Origin: Escherichia phage vB_EcoM_PTE-Eco09
Reading direction: 5' to 3' (one strand)
Sequence record: PQ306574.1
Length of the DNA: 64,000 nt
Shown: positions 24,109-34,991 of the stretch, in pieces
Position numbering within the stretch: position 1 is the stretch's first letter
Layout: each line of letters begins with the position of its first letter
Program-made: the position numbers and the translations under genes
The notes under the pieces: model-generated
The model's input: the letters and a program-made list of their open reading frames with translations, nothing else
What the model was told of the DNA's origin: nothing
Databases searched by the model: none

Positions 24109-24575
24109 TTGATATCTATGCGGGTGGACCTTATCCATCGGGTGAATTGAGTAATTTCAATAAAAGACCATTCCGTCTATTTGGTTGCGATATTAACAGC
24201 ACAGAAGGATTTTTACAGGGGCTAAGATTTAAGAACCCTCAGAGACAAAGAGAAATCTTTTTGATGCACGGTGGCAAAGCAAAAAGAACCGGAAGAACTG
24301 AAAAGATTGAGAATCACCTGTTATATTTTCAGGGTCGCCAGATTCATCGAATGAGTGAGCATTATTACAGACTGGTACATCTGGCATTTGTTACGATGGC
24401 ACGGAATAACCCAGAATTTTGTAAAGCATTACTCGCTACCGGAAATAAGAAATTACGTCATAGTATAGGTGGAACTGATCCGTTAAAGACTATATTGACT
24501 GAATCGGAATTTTGTAGTATCCTCAATGATATTCGTGAACGTTTAACAAAACGAGGTGAAAATGTCAATTCTTAA
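24096..24575 (+). CDS. NADAR-domain protein (YbiA-like)
   Basis: GGPYPSGELSNFNKRPF...STEGFLQGLRF...MHGGKAKRTGR...CKALLATGNKKLRHSIGG resembles NADAR/YbiA signature blocks (SNF, SEHYFQAxKF, LLAT). Confidence 0.6.
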   Translation: MTSEIDIYAGGPYPSGELSNFNKRPFRLFGCDINSTEGFLQGLRFKNPQRQREIFLMHGGKAKRTGRTEKIENHLLYFQGRQIHRMSEHYYRLVHLAFVTMARNNPEFCKALLATGNKKLRHSIGGTDPLKTILTESEFCSILNDIRERLTKRGENVNS

Positions 24576-26058
24576 TATCATTAATCAGCTTGCAGCAACA
24601 GACAAAACATCGCTGAAAGAAAAGATTCTGAAAGAATCAGCAAGCAATGAAACGCTGAAAGAATGCTTTTATCTGGCATATTGCAAACAGGTTACGTTTG
24701 GCGTAAAGAAATACGATAAACCGTCTCGCTATTCGTCTGTATTGTCTTTATCCGGTGCATTACAGGTCTTTAAAAATAAACTTGCCACGCGTCAAGTAAC
24801 TGGTAATGCAGCATTACAACTAGTTACCGATACTCTGACTTGCTTGTCAGAGGATGATGCTAAAGTTGCAATGATGGTCCTGAATCGTGATCTGGAATGC
24901 GGCTGTTCCGCTACCACTGCAAACAAGGTATGGAAGAAACTGATCCCCCAGCAACCGTGCCACCTTGCATCGTCATGTTCTGATAAGACTATTGCTAATA
25001 TCAAGTATCCGGCGTATGCACAACTTAAAAGCGATGGCGCTCGTGGTATGGCTGATATTGACGGGGAAACATTAGCAATCTATACCCGCTCAGGTAATAC
25101 CTATCAAGGGCTTGATGATTTGTTTGCGGTTTTAGAGCGTCTACGAGGCCGTGGAATTGTTCTAGATGGCGAATTGGTATATATGCCTACCCTTTCGCAA
25201 ACACCAGCGCAGAACTTCGTTGAAAGCGTTTATGATGGTACTCTGTCATGGATATTTGAAGAAGAGGAAATGCCATTAACGCCAGTAGCGGAAGCAGTGA
25301 AAGAATCCGTTGTTGCAGATCGTCAGACCGGAAATGGTATCCTCAACAAATCACTTAAAGGAACTATTCCAAAAGAAGAAGCCCAATGTATTGTTTACAC
25401 TGTCTGGGATGTTATCGACCGTGATGTGTATTACGGAAACGAGAAAGCAACGAAGCAATATAAAGATCGATTCGAAGAACTAAAACAGATTGTTGAAGAA
25501 CTTAACGATCCTCGTGTTCAGATCATCGAAAACACTGTAGTTAACAATATCGATGAAGCTCGCGAAGTATATCATCGTTATGTCAACATGGGCTTAGAAG
25601 GTATTATCCTTAAAAATTTACATGGTGTATTTGAAGATCGCCGTAGTAAAGATCAGGTTAAATTTAAAGAAGTGATTGACTTCGACGCGGAAATTGTTGA
25701 TGTATATCCGCATAGTAAAGACCCCAATAAGGTAGGCGGTTTTACTGTCCGTAGTGCGTGCGGACGAATGATGACTAACACCGGATCGGGATTAACCGAC
25801 ACTACAACCGAAAAAGGTGATGATGGTATCGAACGTGTAATTCCGTTCGATCGTCGAAATGAACTCGACCGAGAAATGTTATGGGCTGACCGTCATAACC
25901 TGATTGGAAAAGTCATTGAGATGACATGCAACGGGTATATCCGCAGCAAATCACGTAAAGAAGATGAACCGGAGTTCTCTTTATTTCTCCCAATCATCAA
26001 ACGTATTCGCTACGACAAGACCACTGCAAATACAGTAAAAGAGGTATTCGATGTGTGA
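24562..26058 (+). CDS. 30: ATP-dependent DNA ligase
   Basis: Long matches to recalled T4 ligase (LTGNAA, RDLECG, ANKVW..LIP.QP..LASS, PAYAQLKADGAR, GIVLDGELVY, ASNGI.NKSLKGTI.KEEAQC, IENQVVNN.DEA, GLEGIILKN, RSK..FKEVID.D..IV..YPH.KDP.K.GGF, GSGL, LFLPI..R.R.DKT.ANT). Confidence 0.9.
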   Translation: MSILNIINQLAATDKTSLKEKILKESASNETLKECFYLAYCKQVTFGVKKYDKPSRYSSVLSLSGALQVFKNKLATRQVTGNAALQLVTDTLTCLSEDDAKVAMMVLNRDLECGCSATTANKVWKKLIPQQPCHLASSCSDKTIANIKYPAYAQLKSDGARGMADIDGETLAIYTRSGNTYQGLDDLFAVLERLRGRGIVLDGELVYMPTLSQTPAQNFVESVYDGTLSWIFEEEEMPLTPVAEAVKESVVADRQTGNGILNKSLKGTIPKEEAQCIVYTVWDVIDRDVYYGNEKATKQYKDRFEELKQIVEELNDPRVQIIENTVVNNIDEAREVYHRYVNMGLEGIILKNLHGVFEDRRSKDQVKFKEVIDFDAEIVDVYPHSKDPNKVGGFTVRSACGRMMTNTGSGLTDTTTEKGDDGIERVIPFDRRNELDREMLWADRHNLIGKVIEMTCNGYIRSKSRKEDEPEFSLFLPIIKRIRYDKTTANTVKEVFDV

Positions 26059-26527
26059 TAATGAAGGGGCGAAAGCCCCTAAACCTAAAAAATTGTCAAA
26101 GAAAGAGCAACGCCAGATCCTGAAAATGAAATATGGTGGACGTTGTGCCTATTGTGGCGAGGAACTAGGGGATCGCTGGCACGCGGACCACATCAAACCA
26201 GTATTGCGACGCTCAAAGGTAGTCTATGATGAAAATGGACGAATTGCCCGTAATGATGATGGATCATGGAAATATAAGGTTGTAGGAATGCATAAACCGG
26301 AGCATGATATACTTGATAACATGAATCCGGCGTGTGTGCAATGCAATCTTTATAAAAGCTGTATGGGCTTAGAATACTGGCGTAAGTGTATACGCGAGAA
26401 CTTCCAGAAGTACATTCAGCGCAATATGGGATTGCGAGCGGCTAAACGCTTTGGCTTGCTGTCAATCCACGACCAGCCAGTAGAATTTTATTTCGAAAAG
26501 TACGATCGCGAGCATCAAGAAAAATAA
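26051..26527 (+). CDS. HNH endonuclease
   Basis: Cys pairs and HNH core: CAYCG...WHADHIKP...N...CVQCN. Confidence 0.65.
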   Translation: MCDNEGAKAPKPKKLSKKEQRQILKMKYGGRCAYCGEELGDRWHADHIKPVLRRSKVVYDENGRIARNDDGSWKYKVVGMHKPEHDILDNMNPACVQCNLYKSCMGLEYWRKCIRENFQKYIQRNMGLRAAKRFGLLSIHDQPVEFYFEKYDREHQEK

Positions 26528-26539
26528 TTCAAAAAGTTG

Positions 26540-26568
26540 TTGACAGGGGATCGGTGATCCCCTATACT
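26540..26568 (+). promoter_or_regulatory. PeSL-type early promoter
   Basis: TTGACA, spacer GGGGATCGGTGATCCCC (perfect palindrome), TATACT, leader ACACACATCAAAACGAAACA, SD GGAGAATCAAAA. Confidence 0.6.
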
Positions 26569-26613
26569 ACACACATCAAAACGAAACACACTTTCTTAAA
26601 CGGAGAATCAAAA

Positions 26614-26925
26614 ATGAAATACATCGTAACGCTGCCAATGATTGACTTCGACGGAACCATGAACACCCAGAAGACCATGAGCGCGGAGAACCAACTGAAA
26701 AACGCTACCCTGATTCGTGAAGTTCGCAAGGCACTGGCAAAAGAATTTAACACCAAAATTCATTCTGTAACTGGCGAACGTTTCGCGGATCATCTTGATA
26801 TCAACATCAAACCAGTGCGCAACGGTGTTATCTCTGTAACAACCAGCCGCCCACATGCTGACGCTGATAATCTGACCGCTCGCGCAGAAGATGTAATTAT
26901 GACCGTTATCATGGAAAAACTTTAA
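26614..26925 (+). CDS. hypothetical protein
   Basis: 103-aa ORF after PeSL cassette. Confidence 0.45.
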   Translation: MKYIVTLPMIDFDGTMNTQKTMSAENQLKNATLIREVRKALAKEFNTKIHSVTGERFADHLDINIKPVRNGVISVTTSRPHADADNLTARAEDVIMTVIMEKL

Positions 26926-26933
26926 AAAAGTTG

Positions 26934-26962
26934 TTGACAGGGGATCACCGATCCCCTATACT
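26934..26962 (+). promoter_or_regulatory. PeSL-type early promoter
   Basis: TTGACA, spacer GGGGATCACCGATCCCC, TATACT. Confidence 0.6.
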
Positions 26963-26996
26963 ACACACATACCAACGAGATATAGGAGAATCAAAA

Positions 26997-27164
26997 ATGT
27001 TCCAGACTAAAGCAGAATGCGAAGCATACATTGTAGCAAACCACGGCGAAGATTATCTGAAATTTGACATTGTAGTAGCACAGAAGATCACCGGAATGGT
27101 TGCAAAATATCTGGGTGTTAAAGAAGGTTACTATCCGAGCAACGCACCGGAAATCAACAAATAA
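26997..27164 (+). CDS. hypothetical small protein (duplicated family, copy 1)
   Basis: MFQTKAECEAYIVANHGEDYLKFDIVVAQKITGMVAKYLGVKEGYYPSNAPEINK; near-identical copy at 30281. Confidence 0.5.
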   Translation: MFQTKAECEAYIVANHGEDYLKFDIVVAQKITGMVAKYLGVKEGYYPSNAPEINK

Positions 27165-27167
27165 TAG

Positions 27168-27196
27168 TTGACAATGATTAAAGGGAGTAGTAAGAT
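27168..27196 (+). promoter_or_regulatory. PeSL-type early promoter
   Basis: TTGACA 27168-27173, 17-bp spacer, TAAGAT, leader ACTCCCATCAAGACAACAAAC, SD GGAGAATCAAA. Confidence 0.5.
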
Positions 27197-27228
27197 ACTC
27201 CCATCAAGACAACAAACGGAGAATCAAA

Positions 27229-27408
27229 ATGAAAGCTATCGAAGTTCAGAAGTACATGGAAATCATCGTTGAAGGTAAAGCACATACAGTATTGACTACC
27301 CACGTAGGATATGATAAAAATGTGCATATGCTGGTAGACAATATCGGCTGGATGAAGTTTAATCCTAACGAGAACGTACAAGCTCAAGAAATGACCATCC
27401 CTTTCTAA
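27229..27408 (+). CDS. hypothetical small protein
   Basis: 59-aa ORF (MKAIEVQKYMEIIVEGKAHTVLTTHVGYDKNVHMLVDNIGWMKF...) after cassette. Confidence 0.4.
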   Translation: MKAIEVQKYMEIIVEGKAHTVLTTHVGYDKNVHMLVDNIGWMKFNPNENVQAQEMTIPF

Positions 27409-27420
27409 GAGGAATATATT

Positions 27421-27699
27421 ATGATGCGAATTACTGCAACGCTGGATAAGACACACAAAGAAAGATTTTTCGGTATGATCTTAAAAACGCCGATTTTCGA
27501 TAATTACCTTTATGTTGACTATGAAGGTCACATTAGCTATAAATGTAAAAATGATATTCGTGATTCCTTTGGTGATAAATCACAATCTGATATTCATGAC
27601 CACTGGTGGAACCATGACGAACCTTTACGAGTTATCGCAGTTGATGTAAAAACAACAAAAGAAGCTGATAAGGTAGTGAATGATTATGAGCAAATTTAA
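27421..27699 (+). CDS. hypothetical protein, HxxHW-motif family member 1
   Basis: 92 aa; shares YLYVDYEG...IxY, HDHWW and VIAVDV blocks with ORFs at 28123, 28446 and 29147. Confidence 0.45.
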   Translation: MMRITATLDKTHKERFFGMILKTPIFDNYLYVDYEGHISYKCKNDIRDSFGDKSQSDIHDHWWNHDEPLRVIAVDVKTTKEADKVVNDYEQI

Positions 27700-27943
27700 A
27701 GAATACAAAGCATATCAACAGATCCTGCGAGTATACGCACCAGAGTTCGCCGAAAAGATGATGGAAGATGCATCAAAATGCCCGTCCTTTTCTGGAAACA
27801 AAAACCATTATTCTACTCGTATTGTATCATGGAAAGAAACATGCTACACTCAACAGTGGATAAACGTTTTCTCAAAAACAATTGGTTGGAATGGTGTTAA
27901 TTATGGGTATTCAGAGTCAATTCAAAGATTATCGAGTGTATAA
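27680..27943 (+). CDS. hypothetical protein (FKxY...ADKMMxEASxCxSF family, copy 1)
   Basis: 87 aa; paralogous to following ORF. Confidence 0.4.
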   Translation: MIMSKFKEYKAYQQILRVYAPEFAEKMMEDASKCPSFSGNKNHYSTRIVSWKETCYTQQWINVFSKTIGWNGVNYGYSESIQRLSSV

Positions 27944-28121
27944 AGAAATCTGTGCTGTATTTGATGAGAAAACAGCAGATAAAATGATGAAAGAAGCGTC
28001 ACAATGTTCATCTTTTGTTGATAACAAAGATTTAAGAGTAAATGAGATCGTGTGCTGGAGCGACACGAAACATGAAATTGTATGGCGTACCGTGTACTAT
28101 AGCCGCGACCGAGGATTATAA
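27903..28121 (+). CDS. hypothetical protein (FKxY...ADKMMxEASxCxSF family, copy 2)
   Basis: 72 aa from ATG 27903; MGIQSQFKDYRVYKEICAVFDEKTADKMMKEASQCSSF parallels previous ORF. Confidence 0.4.
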   Translation: MGIQSQFKDYRVYKEICAVFDEKTADKMMKEASQCSSFVDNKDLRVNEIVCWSDTKHEIVWRTVYYSRDRGL

Positions 28122-28122
28122 A

Positions 28123-28431
28123 ATGAAATTAACTAAAAAGATTTTCCCAGAATTGCGTAACTGTCTGTTACTGGTTACTGAATATAAGCCGTATACGATC
28201 TACTTGTACGTTGATGAAAATCTGAAAATCCGTTACTATGATTATACGTCTCCAGTGATGCAATCATTTTCTCACTCGATAGCAAATAACTGTATGAATC
28301 ACAATCATTGGGTATCAAAAACGGATGACGATGCGTCAGAAGTTGTAGTGGTTGCATGGAATCTATCACCAGCGGAAGCAGATCAAGCACGCATTCAGCA
28401 TTACGCGAAAAACAACGGTCAAACTTTATAA
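28123..28431 (+). CDS. hypothetical protein, HxxHW-motif family member 2
   Basis: YTIYLYVDENLKIRYYDY...NHNHW...VVVVAWNL; SD GAGGA. Confidence 0.45.
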   Translation: MKLTKKIFPELRNCLLLVTEYKPYTIYLYVDENLKIRYYDYTSPVMQSFSHSIANNCMNHNHWVSKTDDDASEVVVVAWNLSPAEADQARIQHYAKNNGQTL

Positions 28432-28445
28432 GTGAGGAAAATATT

Positions 28446-28724
28446 ATGTTCAAAGTAGGTGATAAGTTTATTCTTAGTCGTGATATTCTCCCTAATCTGA
28501 AAGGTTGTATCATCAATCCTAGTAAAAATTCATGGTTTTATCTGTTTATCGACGACAAACTGAATGTACGCGCAGAATATAAAGAAGGTCTTCGTACTGG
28601 TCTAGGTTTCTTTCACGATCATGATCATAGCCATTGGCTAAACGGTGGATTCGAAGCAACGGTGCTAGCGGTTGATGTGACTTACACGAACATCATAGAA
28701 AAATATCAAAAAATTATTTTATAA
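28446..28724 (+). CDS. hypothetical protein, HxxHW-motif family member 3
   Basis: WFYLFIDDKLNVRAEY...HDHDHSHW...VLAVDVT; SD GTGAGGA. Confidence 0.45.
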   Translation: MFKVGDKFILSRDILPNLKGCIINPSKNSWFYLFIDDKLNVRAEYKEGLRTGLGFFHDHDHSHWLNGGFEATVLAVDVTYTNIIEKYQKIIL

Positions 28725-28730
28725 AAAGTA

Positions 28731-28759
28731 TTGACACCGGATCGGGGATATAGCATAAT
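28731..28759 (+). promoter_or_regulatory. PeSL-type early promoter
   Basis: TTGACA, spacer CCGGATCGGGGATATAG, CATAAT with GGGGATAT/ATATCCCC palindrome spanning -10. Confidence 0.55.
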
Positions 28760-28805
28760 ATCCCCATCGAAACGAGATACACTTTCTAACTAGGAGAATC
28801 AAATT

Positions 28806-29093
28806 ATGGCATACATTACTATCACTCTGAAAGTTAACAAATTCGCTCACGCTGCACACGAAACCGATAATGCAATCCGTAACAACAAGTTCGCACGTCT
28901 GGTACGCGATGCGGTAGCTAAAGAGTTCAACTTCAAATTTGCAGATGGTAAAGTTATCACTAAATGGACTCATGACGGCGAAACTAAAGTAGAACTTGCT
29001 GATAACTTCGCAAATCAGGAATATGCACACCGTCGCATTAATGAAATTATCAGCGATGAACTCTACTACGGTGTACAGGAAGGACTGTTTTAA
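28806..29093 (+). CDS. hypothetical protein
   Basis: 95-aa ORF after PeSL cassette; followed by terminator. Confidence 0.45.
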   Translation: MAYITITLKVNKFAHAAHETDNAIRNNKFARLVRDAVAKEFNFKFADGKVITKWTHDGETKVELADNFANQEYAHRRINEIISDELYYGVQEGLF

Positions 29094-29098
29094 TATAC

Positions 29099-29124
29099 GG
29101 GGCGTTAAGCCCCACCCCTTTTCA
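29099..29124 (+). terminator. intrinsic terminator
   Basis: GGGGC-GTTAA-GCCCC hairpin then CCCTTTTC. Confidence 0.55.
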
Positions 29125-29146
29125 TCCAACTATTGAGGATAATACT

Positions 29147-29455
29147 ATGAAAGATAATATCTTTGAATTTACCCGCGAAAATCTCCCAATGTTCCGAAAG
29201 TCTCTGCTTAAACTAGAGAACAGTAATTATGATGTATATTTTTACATCACCGAAGACCTAGAGATCCTTTACGCAGATTATCCAGGTCCGATCCGTACCT
29301 TCGAAGAAGCATCGCAGTATAAAAATGTTCACGGTCATGAGCACTGGTTACGAGAAAACCCAGGTCGCAAGAAAGCACGCGTTAAAGTGATTGCGATTGA
29401 CGTAACACCAGCATACGCCGACCGGATTGCACTGAATGATTATTTGTCTAAATGA
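29147..29455 (+). CDS. hypothetical protein, HxxHW-motif family member 4
   Basis: YDVYFYITEDLEILYADY...HGHEHW...VIAIDVT. Confidence 0.45.
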   Translation: MKDNIFEFTRENLPMFRKSLLKLENSNYDVYFYITEDLEILYADYPGPIRTFEEASQYKNVHGHEHWLRENPGRKKARVKVIAIDVTPAYADRIALNDYLSK

Positions 29456-29462
29456 TTTTATT

Positions 29463-29487
29463 AGCCGACCTTAGTGTCGGCTTTTTT
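29463..29487 (+). terminator. intrinsic terminator
   Basis: AGCCGAC-CTTAGT-GTCGGCT hairpin followed by TTTTTTA. Confidence 0.7.
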
Positions 29488-29512
29488 ATTGCATAAAATT
29501 TTAAAAAAGTTG

Positions 29513-29541
29513 TTGACACCAGATCACGCCTATAGCATAAT
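29513..29541 (+). promoter_or_regulatory. PeSL-type early promoter
   Basis: TTGACA 29513-29518, 17-bp spacer, CATAAT 29536-29541, conserved leader and SD. Confidence 0.55.
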
Positions 29542-29581
29542 ACACCCATCGAAACGAGATACCACTTAGGAGAATCAAACA

Positions 29582-29851
29582 ATGGCGCTGACTAAAACCA
29601 CTACCAACTTTGCAAAACGTCACGGCTTCGACCTTGAAATCAATAGCTTTAACGATTACACCCTTCTGTGTGTATATGAAATCGAAAATGATTGCGAGTG
29701 GATGTTCAGCTATCGCGTAAACGAAGACGGATCTTTCACTTGGAACGGAAATATCTATCTTGCACAGGAAGTAAAAGAAGAACTACCGGCGACTATCAAA
29801 GATGAGAAGCATTTACGTCAAGTTTTAAAATTTATTTCTGAAAATATCTAA
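29582..29851 (+). CDS. hypothetical protein
   Basis: 89-aa ORF after cassette. Confidence 0.45.
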   Translation: MALTKTTTNFAKRHGFDLEINSFNDYTLLCVYEIENDCEWMFSYRVNEDGSFTWNGNIYLAQEVKEELPATIKDEKHLRQVLKFISENI

Positions 29852-29859
29852 AAAAGTTG

Positions 29860-29888
29860 TTGACACCAAAGTAAGAACATAGCATAAT
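29860..29888 (+). promoter_or_regulatory. PeSL-type early promoter
   Basis: TTGACA 29860-29865, 17-bp spacer, CATAAT 29883-29888. Confidence 0.55.
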
Positions 29889-29921
29889 ACACACATACCG
29901 AAACGAACTGGAGAATCAAAA

Positions 29922-30203
29922 ATGAAATTCATCAAAGCAACCGAAATCCTGAAAAACAAAGAAGCATACATCGGAAACATCGTTGGTATGAACATTCGCG
30001 GCGCTGGTAGCCAGTGGACCAAACTGGTTGATGTTAAAGCTAAAGGCGATAAAATTGAGTTCACTGTAAAAATGCTTACTCATAACGCACATATGGGTAT
30101 CAAGACAAAAACGATGGCAGCAGATAAAAGCATCAACTATCAGGATCTGGGCGATTGGCTGAACTGGTGCAAAATACACAACATCGAAACTAATCACGAA
30201 TAA
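29922..30203 (+). CDS. hypothetical protein
   Basis: 93-aa ORF after cassette. Confidence 0.45.
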   Translation: MKFIKATEILKNKEAYIGNIVGMNIRGAGSQWTKLVDVKAKGDKIEFTVKMLTHNAHMGIKTKTMAADKSINYQDLGDWLNWCKIHNIETNHE

Positions 30204-30217
30204 TTTTAAAAAAGTTG

Positions 30218-30246
30218 TTGACGGGGATCGGGAGATCCCCTATAAT
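30218..30246 (+). promoter_or_regulatory. PeSL-type early promoter
   Basis: TTGACG, spacer GGGATCGGGAGATCCCC, TATAAT. Confidence 0.6.
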
Positions 30247-30280
30247 GCACACATACCAACGAGATATAGGAGAATCAAAA

Positions 30281-30448
30281 ATGTTCCAGACTAAAGCAGA
30301 ATGCGAAGCATATATCATTGAAACCCACGGCGAAGATTATCTGAAATTTGACATTGTAGTAGCACAGAAGATTGTAGGGATGGTTGCGAAATACCTCGGA
30401 GTTAAAGAAGGTTACTATCCTAGCAACGCACCAGAAATTAACAAATAA
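30281..30448 (+). CDS. hypothetical small protein (duplicated family, copy 2)
   Basis: MFQTKAECEAYIIETHGEDYLKFDIVVAQKIVGMVAKYLGVKEGYYPSNAPEINK; differs from 26997 copy at a few residues. Confidence 0.5.
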   Translation: MFQTKAECEAYIIETHGEDYLKFDIVVAQKIVGMVAKYLGVKEGYYPSNAPEINK

Positions 30449-30462
30449 TTTTATAAAAAGTG

Positions 30463-30491
30463 TTGACAGGGGAGGATAACTCCCCTACAAT
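30463..30491 (+). promoter_or_regulatory. PeSL-type early promoter
   Basis: TTGACA, spacer GGGGAGGATAACTCCCC, TACAAT. Confidence 0.55.
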
Positions 30492-30531
30492 ACAACCATC
30501 AAGACGAGATACCACTTAGGAGAATCAAACA

Positions 30532-30783
30532 ATGGCTAACATCGAAACCGCAAAGAAAATCGCTAAAGACCTGAACGTTAAAGGCTTCCGTAAACTGAAA
30601 TTACAGCGTGTACGCTACACCATCGGCAAACAGTGCTCTTTCATGAGCGAAGAAGTTGCTAACAGCCTGATTGATAACCTGATTGCGGCTGGCTGGGAAG
30701 TTGCGGATCTGAAAACTTGCCGCGAACTGGCTAAAAAAGGTCTTTTAGATTCTGTTACTATCAAACCAATGGGGGCAGCGTGA
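30532..30783 (+). CDS. hypothetical protein (first gene of coupled operon)
   Basis: 83-aa ORF after cassette. Confidence 0.45.
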   Translation: MANIETAKKIAKDLNVKGFRKLKLQRVRYTIGKQCSFMSEEVANSLIDNLIAAGWEVADLKTCRELAKKGLLDSVTIKPMGAA

Positions 30784-32659: not shown

Positions 32660-32872
32660 ATGGCTAACATCGAAATCATCATTACCGACGTAACTTATGA
32701 CCGCATTAACGAAATCGGTACTGCATTACTGGAAGATGGAACAACTCGTACCATCAACTACGCAGAATACGTTGAAATGCGTGGTTGTATTAAACGAGTA
32801 GGAAAATATATCCTGATTGAAAAAGACTATTCAGGATACACCTTAGAGCAATTGCTTGATGGTGCATTATAA
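32660..32872 (+). CDS. hypothetical small protein
   Basis: 70-aa ORF (MANIEIIITDVTYDRINEIG...) after cassette; followed by terminator. Confidence 0.4.
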   Translation: MANIEIIITDVTYDRINEIGTALLEDGTTRTINYAEYVEMRGCIKRVGKYILIEKDYSGYTLEQLLDGAL

Positions 32873-32878
32873 TAAAAA

Positions 32879-32900
32879 GGGGCGTTAAGCCCCGTTTTCA
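32879..32900 (+). terminator. intrinsic terminator
   Basis: GGGGC-GTTAA-GCCCC hairpin followed by GTTTTCA. Confidence 0.6.
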
Positions 32901-32939: not shown

Positions 32940-34991
32940 ATGTTTAACTTAGAAATCGACGATCTAATGATTGAATCTTTCGAGAAATGGCTGTTGACGG
33001 AAGAGGAAGAAAACTTTGGCAGTATTGCTCCTGTACAGTGCTTAAAGCCTAAGCAGAATCCTAAACAGCTTTTTGCAGTACAGACACGCGATAAAGATGT
33101 GATTGTCCGTCTTTGCAACTTCACCAACAAAACACCTAAAATCATTCGTATGGGTGACAAGACCGCACATGTTGTACTGTGCGAAATGAACAAAAGCGGT
33201 CGTATTGTACAGCTTAAAAATGGTCTAGGCGATAACCCGATTGCAGTTATGTCAAGTGCTTTTGATGTGGTTATGGAAACAGCCCGTAAAGCGCAATTAG
33301 ACGCTGTTATGTTCCGTTTTAACGTATCCCGCATGAAAGGTAAGACCGAACTGGTTAAGCGCGTTATAGAGCGTTTGGTGCGTCGTACACCGAAGTTTGA
33401 AGTATTCCAGCAGGAAGTAATGACCAGCAAAAAGATCGCTTTAGTTGTTGTCAAGCGTCGCGGTATGGCGATTGATAAGATTAAAGGGATTAAACTTGAT
33501 GATTCCTTGTTCACTAAAGTAGAAAGTGATTTAGGTGATCGCTGGGTATCTAAGGCTACTGGTGAATCTCTGACTAAAGATGAGGCATATGCGGCTAGTC
33601 TTGTGTCAGAAGAAGAACGAAACGCGGAAGCGGAACAACGCGTAGCGGCTAAATCTCGTTTGACTAAAGAAGAAATGCTGAAAACTCAAGCGACCTATAA
33701 CAGCGACTATGTGAATCATCCAGAAAAAATTAATCTTAAACCGGAAGAAGATATCACCGAAGCCGAACCTAAGAAACAGTTTAATACTCTGATTGATCGT
33801 CAAGCCTTAGAACGTTCAACCGCCCGTTCTCTGAATGACTGGACAAGTGATATTATCACTCGCTATGGTTTCATGCGTACTATTTTTGAAAGCGAAGCCG
33901 ATGCAAAATACGCAGTAAGCGAACTGGTAAAAGTTCAGGATCAATATGATCCGTTGTCTGCGGAAGTTATCGCAGCATCAATCAAACGCTTAAAAGAAAT
34001 CATGAGCGAGGAAGTATTCGAAAACAAGATCACCGCCCGGGCAATGGATCGAGTAGACCAGTCTATGCCAGCAGATGTAAAAGCTGAAATGCTGCGTAGT
34101 CATATCACCCAGATTAAAACCGATGCCCTACGTAATGTTGCGTCCGGTATGTTTGAAGCAATTGCTAGCAACATGGGTGAAATGATGGCAGATATTGATC
34201 TTGATCTGCCAGGCGCGGAAGGTTTTGTGTTGAGCGAATATGCCGATGCAGCATACATCAATATGAACAACTTCCTAACTGATCGTAAGCTGGAAGAGTT
34301 TGAAGGCATCGCAGATCCAGAAGAATTGGTCAAGATGTGCGATGCACTGGATAATGCCTTCTCCAACTATGGCGTTAAACTTGATCCGGGTACTATTCTG
34401 TATCGTGGTATGGACTTCCGGTCGCAAATGTGGGAAACTGCACGTAAGCAAAAAGCGTTTTACTTTAAAAACTATGTGAGCACTTCCCTTGCACCTAACA
34501 TTTTTGGCGGCTGGAATGCAAACGTGGCTAGTGCCGTTGCTGGTGTTGATTCTATGGCTGGCTCTCGCGGTGAAGGTGGCGCTAATGTTGCTTTCTCCAT
34601 TGCTGGCGCGGAAAACATCCCTGTATTGCCAGTAGGTAACAAAGCATTTGCTTACAAAGAATGCGAGATTTTACTTCCTCGCGGTGTTGTGTTATCCTTT
34701 GATACGGTAACTCGTGCTACGGCATCGACGGATTCACAAGAAACTTATTACATTGAGGCACATATTATGAACAAAAATGAACTGGCAGCATTACAAGAAT
34801 CTGGCGAGATGATCGCGGACGGTGATGCATTCATCCGTGAAGGTGTTATTAAACCTGCTTCTGACCTGTCTTTCTCCAGCTTTATTACCGAAGCTAAAAC
34901 CGAACGTAAGAAAGCAGATAAGGCAACTCTACGTCAGCTTATCGCTGATCTGGTATCTGTAGACGCAATGCCAGATAAATTTAAAATGTAA
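32940..34991 (+). CDS. alt: ADP-ribosyltransferase Alt-like
   Basis: 683 aa (T4 Alt about 682); C-terminal ART triad R (LYRGMDFR), STS (YVSTSL), ExE (KECEILLPRG); position next to baseplate gene 54. Confidence 0.8.
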   Translation: MFNLEIDDLMIESFEKWLLTEEEENFGSIAPVQCLKPKQNPKQLFAVQTRDKDVIVRLCNFTNKTPKIIRMGDKTAHVVLCEMNKSGRIVQLKNGLGDNPIAVMSSAFDVVMETARKAQLDAVMFRFNVSRMKGKTELVKRVIERLVRRTPKFEVFQQEVMTSKKIALVVVKRRGMAIDKIKGIKLDDSLFTKVESDLGDRWVSKATGESLTKDEAYAASLVSEEERNAEAEQRVAAKSRLTKEEMLKTQATYNSDYVNHPEKINLKPEEDITEAEPKKQFNTLIDRQALERSTARSLNDWTSDIITRYGFMRTIFESEADAKYAVSELVKVQDQYDPLSAEVIAASIKRLKEIMSEEVFENKITARAMDRVDQSMPADVKAEMLRSHITQIKTDALRNVASGMFEAIASNMGEMMADIDLDLPGAEGFVLSEYADAAYINMNNFLTDRKLEEFEGIADPEELVKMCDALDNAFSNYGVKLDPGTILYRGMDFRSQMWETARKQKAFYFKNYVSTSLAPNIFGGWNANVASAVAGVDSMAGSRGEGGANVAFSIAGAENIPVLPVGNKAFAYKECEILLPRGVVLSFDTVTRATASTDSQETYYIEAHIMNKNELAALQESGEMIADGDAFIREGVIKPASDLSFSSFITEAKTERKKADKATLRQLIADLVSVDAMPDKFKM

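Follow-up and report, generated by a model that had tools for sequence, protein, structure and literature searches.

Among the closest described systems are the promoter-early stem-loop (PeSL) plus ORFan cassettes of coliphages RB49 and phi1, treated by Arbiol et al. 2010 (PMC2839356) and Comeau et al. 2014 (PMC4122927). In a lacZ fusion, the orthologous PeSL206/205 behaved as a very strong promoter, reaching ~13,000 Miller units, while a terminator assay has been published for the PeSL211/210 stem-loop only (PMC2839356). The same work detected by inverse PCR a mini-circle of ORF191-194, ORF191 included, and identified no integrase in RB49/phi1 (PMC2839356). The words paralog, gene duplication and gene conversion are absent from both papers, and neither appears to note the paralogy of ORF205 and ORF191 (PMC2839356, PMC4122927).

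The window analyzed here comprises 64,000 nt of Escherichia phage vB_EcoM_PTE-Eco09 (PQ306574.1). Krischvirus genomes match the region at 94-99% identity, and sequence similarity identifies the source as a Krischvirus, an RB49/phi1-like T4-type coliphage. Two similar promoter-plus-gene units, hereafter copy A and copy B, lie within a hyperplastic early-gene region between DNA ligase (gp30) and Alt, where they form part of a same-strand cassette array; synteny with RB49 and phi1 equates copy A with ORF205 and copy B with ORF191. Eight near-consensus sigma-70 promoters with a 17-nt spacer occur on the + strand between 26.5 and 32.6 kb, and the PeSL stems of the region fold at -13 to -16 kcal/mol; a search for structured RNA gave no Rfam match in 24-34 kb at E <= 0.1. 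The gene at 26614-26925 is the ORF210 ortholog (blastn against RB49) and precedes copy A because ORF209-206 are absent from the window. A suspected relationship between this gene and the one at 28806-29093 was not significant by blastp.

The coordinates of all features are listed in Table 1. Both units display the full set of PeSL cassette elements, namely an AT-rich tract containing the upstream gene's stop codon, a promoter with its spacer, a stem-loop, and a Shine-Dalgarno sequence followed by a small ORFan. Each promoter has a 17-nt spacer and agrees with the consensus at 11 of 12 hexamer positions, the AT fraction over the 20 nt 5' of the -35 is 0.80-0.85 in both copies, GGAG stands 8 nt ahead of the ATG, and the leader GGAGAATCAAA-ATG is conserved. 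When folded as 61-nt segments, the stem-loops reached -14.5 kcal/mol (z -3.7) in copy A and -16.2 kcal/mol (z -2.4) in copy B. No T-run follows either PeSL stem, and a terminator scan lists neither; a terminator or attenuator function of both stems is suggested by analogy with the published assay of a different PeSL.

Table 1. Coordinates of the two PeSL cassettes, the block between them and the mosaic patches in the 64,000-nt window.
Feature	Position	Strand	Details
Copy A PeSL promoter cassette	26916..26996	+	AT-rich tract, promoter, stem-loop, leader
Upstream gene's stop codon in copy A AT-rich tract	26923-26925	+	TAA
Copy A -35	26934-26939	+	TTGACA
Copy A stem-loop	26940-26956	+	GGGGATC-ACC-GATCCCC; occupies entire 17-nt spacer
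Copy A -10	26957-26962	+	TATACT
Copy A Shine-Dalgarno	26985-26988	+	GGAG, in leader
Copy A coding sequence	26997..27164	+	55 aa, MFQTKAECEAYIVANHGEDY..., ortholog of RB49/phi1 ORF205
48-nt run identical to copy B	27041-27088	+	Encloses copy A patch
B-type (ORF191-type) patch in copy A	27047..27071	+	6 consecutive diagnostic synonymous sites, +51..+75
Inter-copy block	27165..30217	+	Orthologs of RB49 ORF204, 203, 202, 201, 200, 199, 198, 197, 194, 193
ORF204-ortholog promoter	27168..27196	+	Begins 4 nt past copy A stop codon; 3' limit of cassette A
PeSL promoters inside inter-copy block	27168, 28731, 29513, 29860	+	
Copy B PeSL promoter cassette	30199..30280	+	Same element order as copy A cassette
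ORF193-ortholog stop codon in copy B cassette	30201-30203	+	TAA
Copy B -35	30218-30223	+	TTGACG
Copy B stem-loop	30223-30240	+	GGGGATC-GGGA-GATCCCC
Copy B -10	30241-30246	+	TATAAT
65-nt run identical to copy A 26964-27028	30248-30312	+	Encloses copy B patch
A-type (ORF205-type) patch in copy B	30258..30304	+	9 consecutive diagnostic sites, -23..+24
Copy B Shine-Dalgarno	30269-30272	+	GGAG
Copy B coding sequence	30281..30448	+	55 aa, MFQTKAECEAYIIETHGEDY..., ortholog of RB49/phi1 ORF191
ORF190-ortholog PeSL promoter	30463..30491	+	3' limit of cassette B

The original prediction, which placed two nearly identical units about 3.3 kb apart, agrees with these coordinates: the units run from -35 elements starting at 26934 and 30218 to the last stop-codon bases at 27164 and 30448, an offset of 3284 nt. 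The proposed 56-aa length counts the stop codon, so that each protein has 55 residues, and the expected near-identity of the products was borne out at 51 of 55 positions. Of the 168 coding nucleotides, 18 distinguish the copies, changing 11 codons synonymously and replacing the residue in four (V13I, A14E, N15T, T32V), as anticipated from the few substitutions and synonymous changes described. Pairwise alignment of 26920-27170 against the window (blastn) returned 30205-30449 at 89.8% identity over 246 nt (E = 4e-91), far beyond chance. The pair-specific homology runs from the promoter through the stop codon, where the next promoter cassette starts, and the flanking genes are dissimilar (ORF210 versus ORF193 orthologs upstream, ORF204 versus ORF190 orthologs downstream). 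A larger segmental duplication was rejected, given that the neighbouring genes of the two copies have no similarity. The suggestion of a recent cassette-mediated duplication thus stands as regards the unit, a single module of promoter plus ORF that stops where the following one starts, and fails as regards its recency, in view of the clustering by slot, the dS values and the presence of both copies in most of the genus.

Of 15 related genomes examined, 11 carry the two copies in the same pair of syntenic slots, and 53 of 58 database records have the ORF191 (copy B) slot. Across genomes, the mean number of differences per 168 nt is 4.1 between A copies, 3.3 between B copies and 23.8 between A and B copies, so that the sequences cluster by slot and not by genome; measured against its counterparts in the same slot, each of the window's two copies averages ~4 differences per 168 nt. 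While orthologs diverge by about 2%, the paralog dS is 0.93-1.05 in RB49, phi1, JSE, GEC-3S and PHB13, which is near saturation, and 0.55 in the window. Such a value, together with the presence of both copies in most of the genus, does not describe a recent segmental duplication. The slot-wise clustering, the wide presence in the genus and the near-saturated dS therefore show that the pair is old. The paralog dN/dS ratio is 0.05-0.07, and both copies are judged on their substitution pattern to be under strong purifying selection. Six residue differences between the A and B proteins are fixed, at positions 3, 7, 13-15 and 32.

The lower divergence of the pair in the window is limited to a mosaic of two patches. 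Among 38 diagnostic columns, copy A carries the A-type state at all but six contiguous B-type sites, and copy B carries the B-type state at all but nine contiguous A-type sites; by our arithmetic, contiguity of this kind would arise by chance with a probability of ~1e-5 for the six sites and ~2e-7 for the nine. The copy B patch includes leader positions, an extra A ahead of the ATG, and sites in codons 3, 7 and 8. The longest identical runs between the copies are 65 nt and 48 nt in the window, compared with 20-28 nt in most other genomes. Two short conversion tracts, one in each copy, account for the unusual similarity of this pair and its low count of 18 differences. The copy A patch is common to phage Brandy and is partly shared with LF73P4; since Brandy has it too, it could derive from recombination between phages rather than from this lineage. 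The full copy B patch is absent from every other B copy examined, and the B copy of Whisky contains a shorter A-type patch at -23..-16. Mis-phasing of variants between the repeats during assembly is an unlikely source of the mosaic, because copy-specific sites flank each patch within ~85 nt.

Exchange between the two slots is also visible as deletion alleles. Cognac and FL04 each possess a single hybrid copy, lying between the orthologs of ORF206 (upstream) and ORF190 (downstream), and the 3.3 kb between the copies is gone. In Cognac the crossover falls within the interval from -16 to -4, in FL04 somewhere from the stem-loop to -23; the structure of both alleles identifies them as apparent deletions by A x B crossover. 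Copy B alone is missing in Brandy, MIZ4, MIZ5, JK32 and UPWr_E1. Removal of ORFs by recombination between cassettes, as expected of PeSL elements, is thus found here as natural alleles, in Cognac and FL04 and in the copy B loss of Brandy and four further records. Separately, an IMG/VR contig (L006) encodes a protein identical to that of copy A and carries a different deletion, equivalent to 28647-30620.

Taken together, we consider it very probable that copies A and B are an old PeSL-cassette paralog pair (ORF205/ORF191) maintained by purifying selection, with ongoing conversion and deleting crossover. Recent copying of the cassette within the genome of this phage lineage would suit the 93% identity of the proteins, the almost identical promoter and leader, and the fact that the pair in the window is more alike than that in any other genome examined. 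It is nevertheless very improbable: both copies fill the same slots across the genus and group by slot, dS is 0.55 here and ~1 elsewhere, and the extra similarity is limited to two contiguous patches. The idea that one copy is an assembly artefact, whether by repeat expansion or collapse, has a practically negligible probability in the face of 23 differing positions over 246 nt, unique flanks and the recurrence of the two-copy arrangement in the 11 related genomes noted above.

The stretches perfectly identical between the copies (from the leader through codon 10, and across codons 16-31) might alternatively have been kept alike by selection on RNA structure or on the start of translation, and the leader GGAGAATCAAA is indeed conserved in many cassettes of the region. 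This reading is scarcely credible, as most of the sites are either leader positions or synonymous. Nine of 11 further B copies examined have fixed B-type states there, the single copy of FL04 is likewise B-type, and A copies have fixed A-type states at the same positions. Because A and B copies fix different states, both are tolerated and the state in the window is a derived contiguous swap. A further possibility concerns the origin step only: the second copy could be a xenolog, acquired when a PeSL cassette or mini-circle bearing a diverged homolog from another phage entered a resident PeSL. We regard this as possible but on the whole unlikely. The paralog dS of ~1 against ~2% divergence among orthologs is consistent with import, as are the occurrence of the gene family in swi2, a lambdoid NinG neighbourhood and bacterial islands, and the report of PeSL mini-circles inside virions (PMC2839356). 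However, searches outside Krischvirus turned up no potential donor lineage of an A-type or B-type copy, and A and B are alike in promoter, leader and codon style.

The product of copy A matches phrog_8009, whose annotation carries no function, at E = 1e-38; the 55-aa protein had no Pfam match, and PADLOC returned nothing for either copy. An AlphaFold model predicts a hairpin of two helices (pLDDT 81), for which the GEC-3S ortholog was the sole match in PDB and BFVD. The family is very small: a word-indexed search found five proteins and an exhaustive profile search nine, with P0002, P0006 and P0007 as the only apparent full-length relatives. IMG/VR contributed two loci, a search of GTDB representative genomes found no member, and the chromosomal P0006 locus had no match among complete E. 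coli genomes. Its members also occur in unrelated phage settings, comprising siphovirus swi2, the lambdoid NinG neighbourhood and bacterial chromosome islands. The protein is probably a dispensable early accessory factor in host takeover or anti-defence.

In the history that we propose, the second copy would have been placed as a single cassette at another PeSL, from the same genome or a diverged relative, and it may have originated by duplication within the genome, by uptake of a diverged homolog, or as half of an ancient tandem pair that insertions subsequently separated. Since they form ~240-bp direct repeats and the phage recombines homologous sequences very actively, the copies keep interacting. 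Non-reciprocal short conversion tracts carry sequence between them, and A x B crossing-over removes the 3.3-kb block and leaves one hybrid copy, the state of Cognac and FL04, while the reciprocal product would be a circle like those that Arbiol et al. detected; the exchange would presumably be carried out by the T4-type recombination system. Judging from orthologous and neighbouring PeSLs, host RNA polymerase should fire both promoters right after infection, with the spacer stem-loop serving as a putative attenuator of upstream read-through, as Arbiol et al. proposed. It is conceivable, though rather improbable, that the gene-length repeat pair brackets the 3.3-kb, ten-gene block as a discrete module, which could be excised as a circle, re-inserted and moved between co-infecting Krischviruses, and that recurrent conversion renews the extended identity (runs of 65 and 48 nt) needed for efficient T4-type recombination. 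If so, a second tier of cassette-pair modules would be added to the published model of single-PeSL shuffling, and the pair would be kept for more than its protein.

This locus is a clear-cut case from nature of the reshuffling of accessory early genes in T4-type phages: whole promoter-gene cassettes persist as dispersed repeats, swap short patches and act as crossover sites that delete multi-gene blocks. For annotation, it underscores that conversion can locally inflate the similarity of dispersed phage paralogs, and that similarity does not equal duplication age. The wider consequences are limited, since the element type and the loci have already been published; what is added here, namely the ORF205/ORF191 paralogy, the mosaic left by conversion and the deletion alleles, is modest.

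Compared with known systems, both units share with the PeSL cassettes of RB49 and phi1 the succession of AT-rich tract, TTGACA-N17-TATAAT promoter, GGGG...CCCC stem-loop between -35 and -10, Shine-Dalgarno sequence and ORFan ATG, as well as the same genome region and orthologous loci. They depart from the PeSL model in that the recombining homology is the whole ~240-bp cassette, promoter and gene, rather than the PeSL alone, and from RB49/phi1 in that copy A follows the ORF210 ortholog. Each copy contains a short contiguous patch in which the diagnostic sites are those of its counterpart; this resembles interlocus (ectopic) gene conversion between dispersed paralogs, although here the setting is a lytic phage genome and the tracts are only ~25-85 nt; the hybrid single copies of Cognac and FL04, with their distinct crossover points, resemble direct-repeat deletion by homologous recombination. 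Arbiol et al. likened PeSL cassettes to integron gene cassettes and phage morons: in each case small genes travel singly as units, carry or acquire their own expression signals, and build up in arrays; unlike integron cassettes, PeSL cassettes have no attC site, and unlike in morons, the conserved promoter element itself provides the recombination homology.

Copy A (26934-27164) and copy B (30218-30448) are both known promoter-early stem-loop (PeSL) cassettes at experimentally studied loci; the Krischvirus variant that carries them is new, and features of this kind already have an explanation. The sequence at 24.5-33 kb matches Krischvirus genomes (RB49, phi1, JSE, GEC-3S and about 50 more) at 94-99%, and the hyperplastic early region between ligase and Alt was the subject of Arbiol et al. 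2010 (PMC2839356). Synteny identifies ORF205 and ORF191 of RB49/phi1 as the respective orthologs of copies A and B. Both promoters show the published PeSL anatomy, with the upstream gene's stop codon inside an AT-rich tract, sigma-70 hexamers near consensus (11/12 matches), a spacer filled by a GGGGATC...GATCCCC stem-loop, and the conserved leader GGAGAATCAAA. Within 26.5-32.6 kb there are eight promoters that match the consensus at 11/12 positions or more, all on the + strand with 17-nt spacers. PeSL206/205, the ortholog of the copy A promoter, has been cloned and measured at ~13,000 Miller units, and a mini-circle with ORF191-194 was detected via inverse PCR (PMC2839356). When searched as text, neither that paper nor its 2014 follow-up (Comeau et al., PMC4122927) speaks of paralogs, duplicated genes or gene conversion; the ORF205/ORF191 paralogy therefore seems to have gone unremarked. 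Our analysis adds this explicit paralogy, a window-specific conversion mosaic, and natural deletion alleles with mapped junctions.

Coordinates of the two cassettes, the bounds of their region, and distant homologs of the 55-aa protein
Feature	Position	Strand	Detail
Copy A -35	TTGACA from 26934	+	17 nt, then TATACT
Copy A ORF	ATG 26997, stop codon ends 27164	+	GGAG-bearing leader precedes ATG
Copy B -35	TTGACG from 30218	+	17 nt, then TATAAT
Copy B ORF	ATG 30281, stop codon ends 30448	+	GGAG-bearing leader precedes ATG
DNA ligase	24556-26058		upstream bound of region holding both copies
Alt	32940-34991		downstream bound of region holding both copies
Homolog, siphovirus vB_EcoS_swi2	L005 4021-4176	opposite	adjoins large terminase
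Homolog P0006, island in bacterial chromosome contigs	L018-L020 4001-4162		adjoins 2-hydroxyacid dehydrogenase gene
Homolog P0007, small phage-like contig	L021 680-871		adjoins NinG

The units lie where the original prediction had placed them, as hexamers, start codons and stop codons confirm. Searched against the whole window with blastn, 30205-30449 matches 26920-27170 at 89.8% over 246 nt (E = 4e-91), and a repeat finder also recovered the pair, at a spacing of 3284 nt. The proteins are near-identical, with few substitutions and additional synonymous changes, as had been proposed: 51/55 residues agree, and the 18/168 differing nucleotides of the coding sequences amount to 11 codons changed synonymously and 4 replacements. 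Their length is 55 aa rather than 56, the latter being the number of codons counting the stop. Similarity specific to the pair extends from within the promoter as far as the stop codon, and the genes flanking copy A are unrelated to those flanking copy B.

The duplication had also been called recent, which the relatives contradict. Among 15 relatives from which the region was gathered (L001-L016), 11 carry both copies, Cognac and FL04 carry one hybrid copy only, and Brandy and the metagenomic contig L006 carry copy A only. Using copy B plus its downstream junction as the query, we found the full B slot in 53/58 records, the exceptions being Brandy, MIZ4, MIZ5, JK32 and UPWr_E1. Copies cluster by slot and not by genome, with mean differences over 168 nt of 4.1 (A-A), 3.3 (B-B) and 23.8 (A-B). 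Within-genome Nei-Gojobori estimates for RB49, phi1, JSE, GEC-3S and PHB13 gave dS = 0.93-1.05 and dN/dS = 0.05-0.07; dS in the window is 0.55. Slot-wise clustering and these dS values place the split between A and B far before the radiation of the sampled genus, and strong purifying selection acts on both copies. For practical purposes, an assembly artefact is excluded.

The A (ORF205-type) and B (ORF191-type) consensus sequences are separated by 38 alignment columns, numbered here relative to the ATG. Copy A of the window is A-type throughout but for six consecutive B-type sites at +51..+75 (27047-27071), all six synonymous; this patch is common to Brandy, and half of it occurs in LF73P4. 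Copy B is B-type in the stem-loop and from +33 on, and carries nine consecutive A-type sites at -23..+24 (30258-30304), spanning the leader, the additional A that precedes the ATG, and codons 3, 7 and 8. The full -23..+24 patch is absent from every other B copy examined, Whisky having a shorter one (-23..-16). By our own arithmetic, such contiguity would arise by chance with probability 30/C(38,9), ~2e-7, for nine sites and 33/C(38,6), ~1e-5, for six. Because of the two patches, the window contains identical A/B runs of 65 nt (26964-27028 = 30248-30312) and 48 nt; these runs are 20-28 nt in most other genomes, and the window has the highest A-B identity among 12 two-copy genomes. Constraint alone was rejected as the cause, since other genomes tolerate the alternative states and have them fixed. 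Short gene-conversion tracts passing both ways between the copies would account for these sequence patterns most simply.

The 55-aa protein is predicted to form a two-helix hairpin (helices 5-16 and 18-39; pLDDT 81) with a flexible GYYPSNAPEINK tail, and no informative relatives were found by sequence or fold. At six positions (3, 7, 13-15, 32) the A orthologs are consistently distinct from the B orthologs, which hints that two protein variants are being maintained and not just a higher dose of one. Distant homologs occupy three settings outside T4-type phages, and the gene therefore moves among enterobacterial phages; in swi2, the one inspected, no GGGG...CCCC PeSL promoter lies upstream. We infer a dispensable early accessory factor. 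Two metagenome-derived proteins (P0004, P0005) open with the N-terminal 52 or 22 residues of copy A, after which the sequence is unrelated (a histidine-kinase ATPase fragment in P0005); short chimeric contigs are their probable source, rather than genuine fusions.

Immediately upstream of copy A, the gene at 26614-26925 (103 aa; noted region 26505-26996) is the ortholog of RB49 ORF210 and not of ORF206; ORF210 is an ORFan whose mini-circles were detected by Arbiol et al. (PMC2839356). Relative to RB49, the window is without ORF211, ORF209-206, ORF196.1-195 and ORF192, every gap falling between promoter cassettes, and the 212-210-205 arrangement occurs in one piece in 0/58 database records. Older paralog families occupy the block between the copies (27421-29455). 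One pairs the orthologs of ORF202 (27686-27943) and ORF201 (27906-28121), at 39% identity (E = 5e-15); another joins those of ORF203, 200, 199 and 197 (27421-27699, 28123-28431, 28446-28724, 29147-29455), at 27-31% identity and with a common H-x-H-W ... (A/I)(V/I)DV motif. The ORF190 ortholog (30532-30783, 83 aa) weakly matches the C-terminal part of PADLOC RT_UG35, a defence-associated reverse transcriptase model (E = 2.9e-5, 64 residues), which may reflect chance or a small shared domain.

Consensus match and the published assay of the ortholog suggest that host sigma-70 RNA polymerase would transcribe each cassette as an early unit in its own right. The PeSL stem-loop has been proposed in the literature as an attenuator of read-through; no T-run follows the stem of copy A or copy B and the terminator scan lists neither, so this role stays a proposal for these two stems. 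Canonical intrinsic terminators, each a GC stem with a T-run, occur twice in the array, at 29463-29482 after the ORF197 ortholog and at 32879-32893 following the gene at 32660-32872; an ordinary terminator, not a PeSL stem, thus closes some cassettes. The leader GGAGAATCAAA(N0-5)ATG is near-identical in at least seven cassettes (26602, 27218, 28793, 29569, 29910, 30269, 30519), and PeSL conservation therefore reaches well beyond the -10 element, which gives each element further homology for recombination at its 3' end.

A repeat that spans exactly one cassette is equally consistent with two kinds of origin for the second copy: PeSL-mediated insertion of a one-gene circle, from the same genome or a diverged relative, at another PeSL, or an old tandem duplication that arose by unequal exchange between PeSLs and was afterwards broken up by insertions and internal duplications. 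The copies double as crossover sites, as Cognac and FL04 illustrate. Both phages lack the ~3.3 kb holding ORF204-193, and one 55-aa gene alone separates the orthologs of ORF206 (upstream) and ORF190 (downstream). That this single-copy state is ancestral is less parsimonious, given two copies in all four named species with records retrieved (RB49, georgiaone/phi1, jse, gec3s) and in most records. In each phage the single copy is a hybrid: in Cognac it is A-type up to -16 and B-type from -4, while in FL04 the -35 and stem-loop are of A-slot type (TTGACA-GGGGATCGGGAGATCCCC, matching the FL15 A slot) and B-type sequence begins at -23. Since the junctions differ, A x B crossover appears to have happened twice, independently. 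Each such crossover would release a reciprocal circle comprising the block and one hybrid cassette; Arbiol et al. detected the same kind of circle, but for smaller PeSL intervals.
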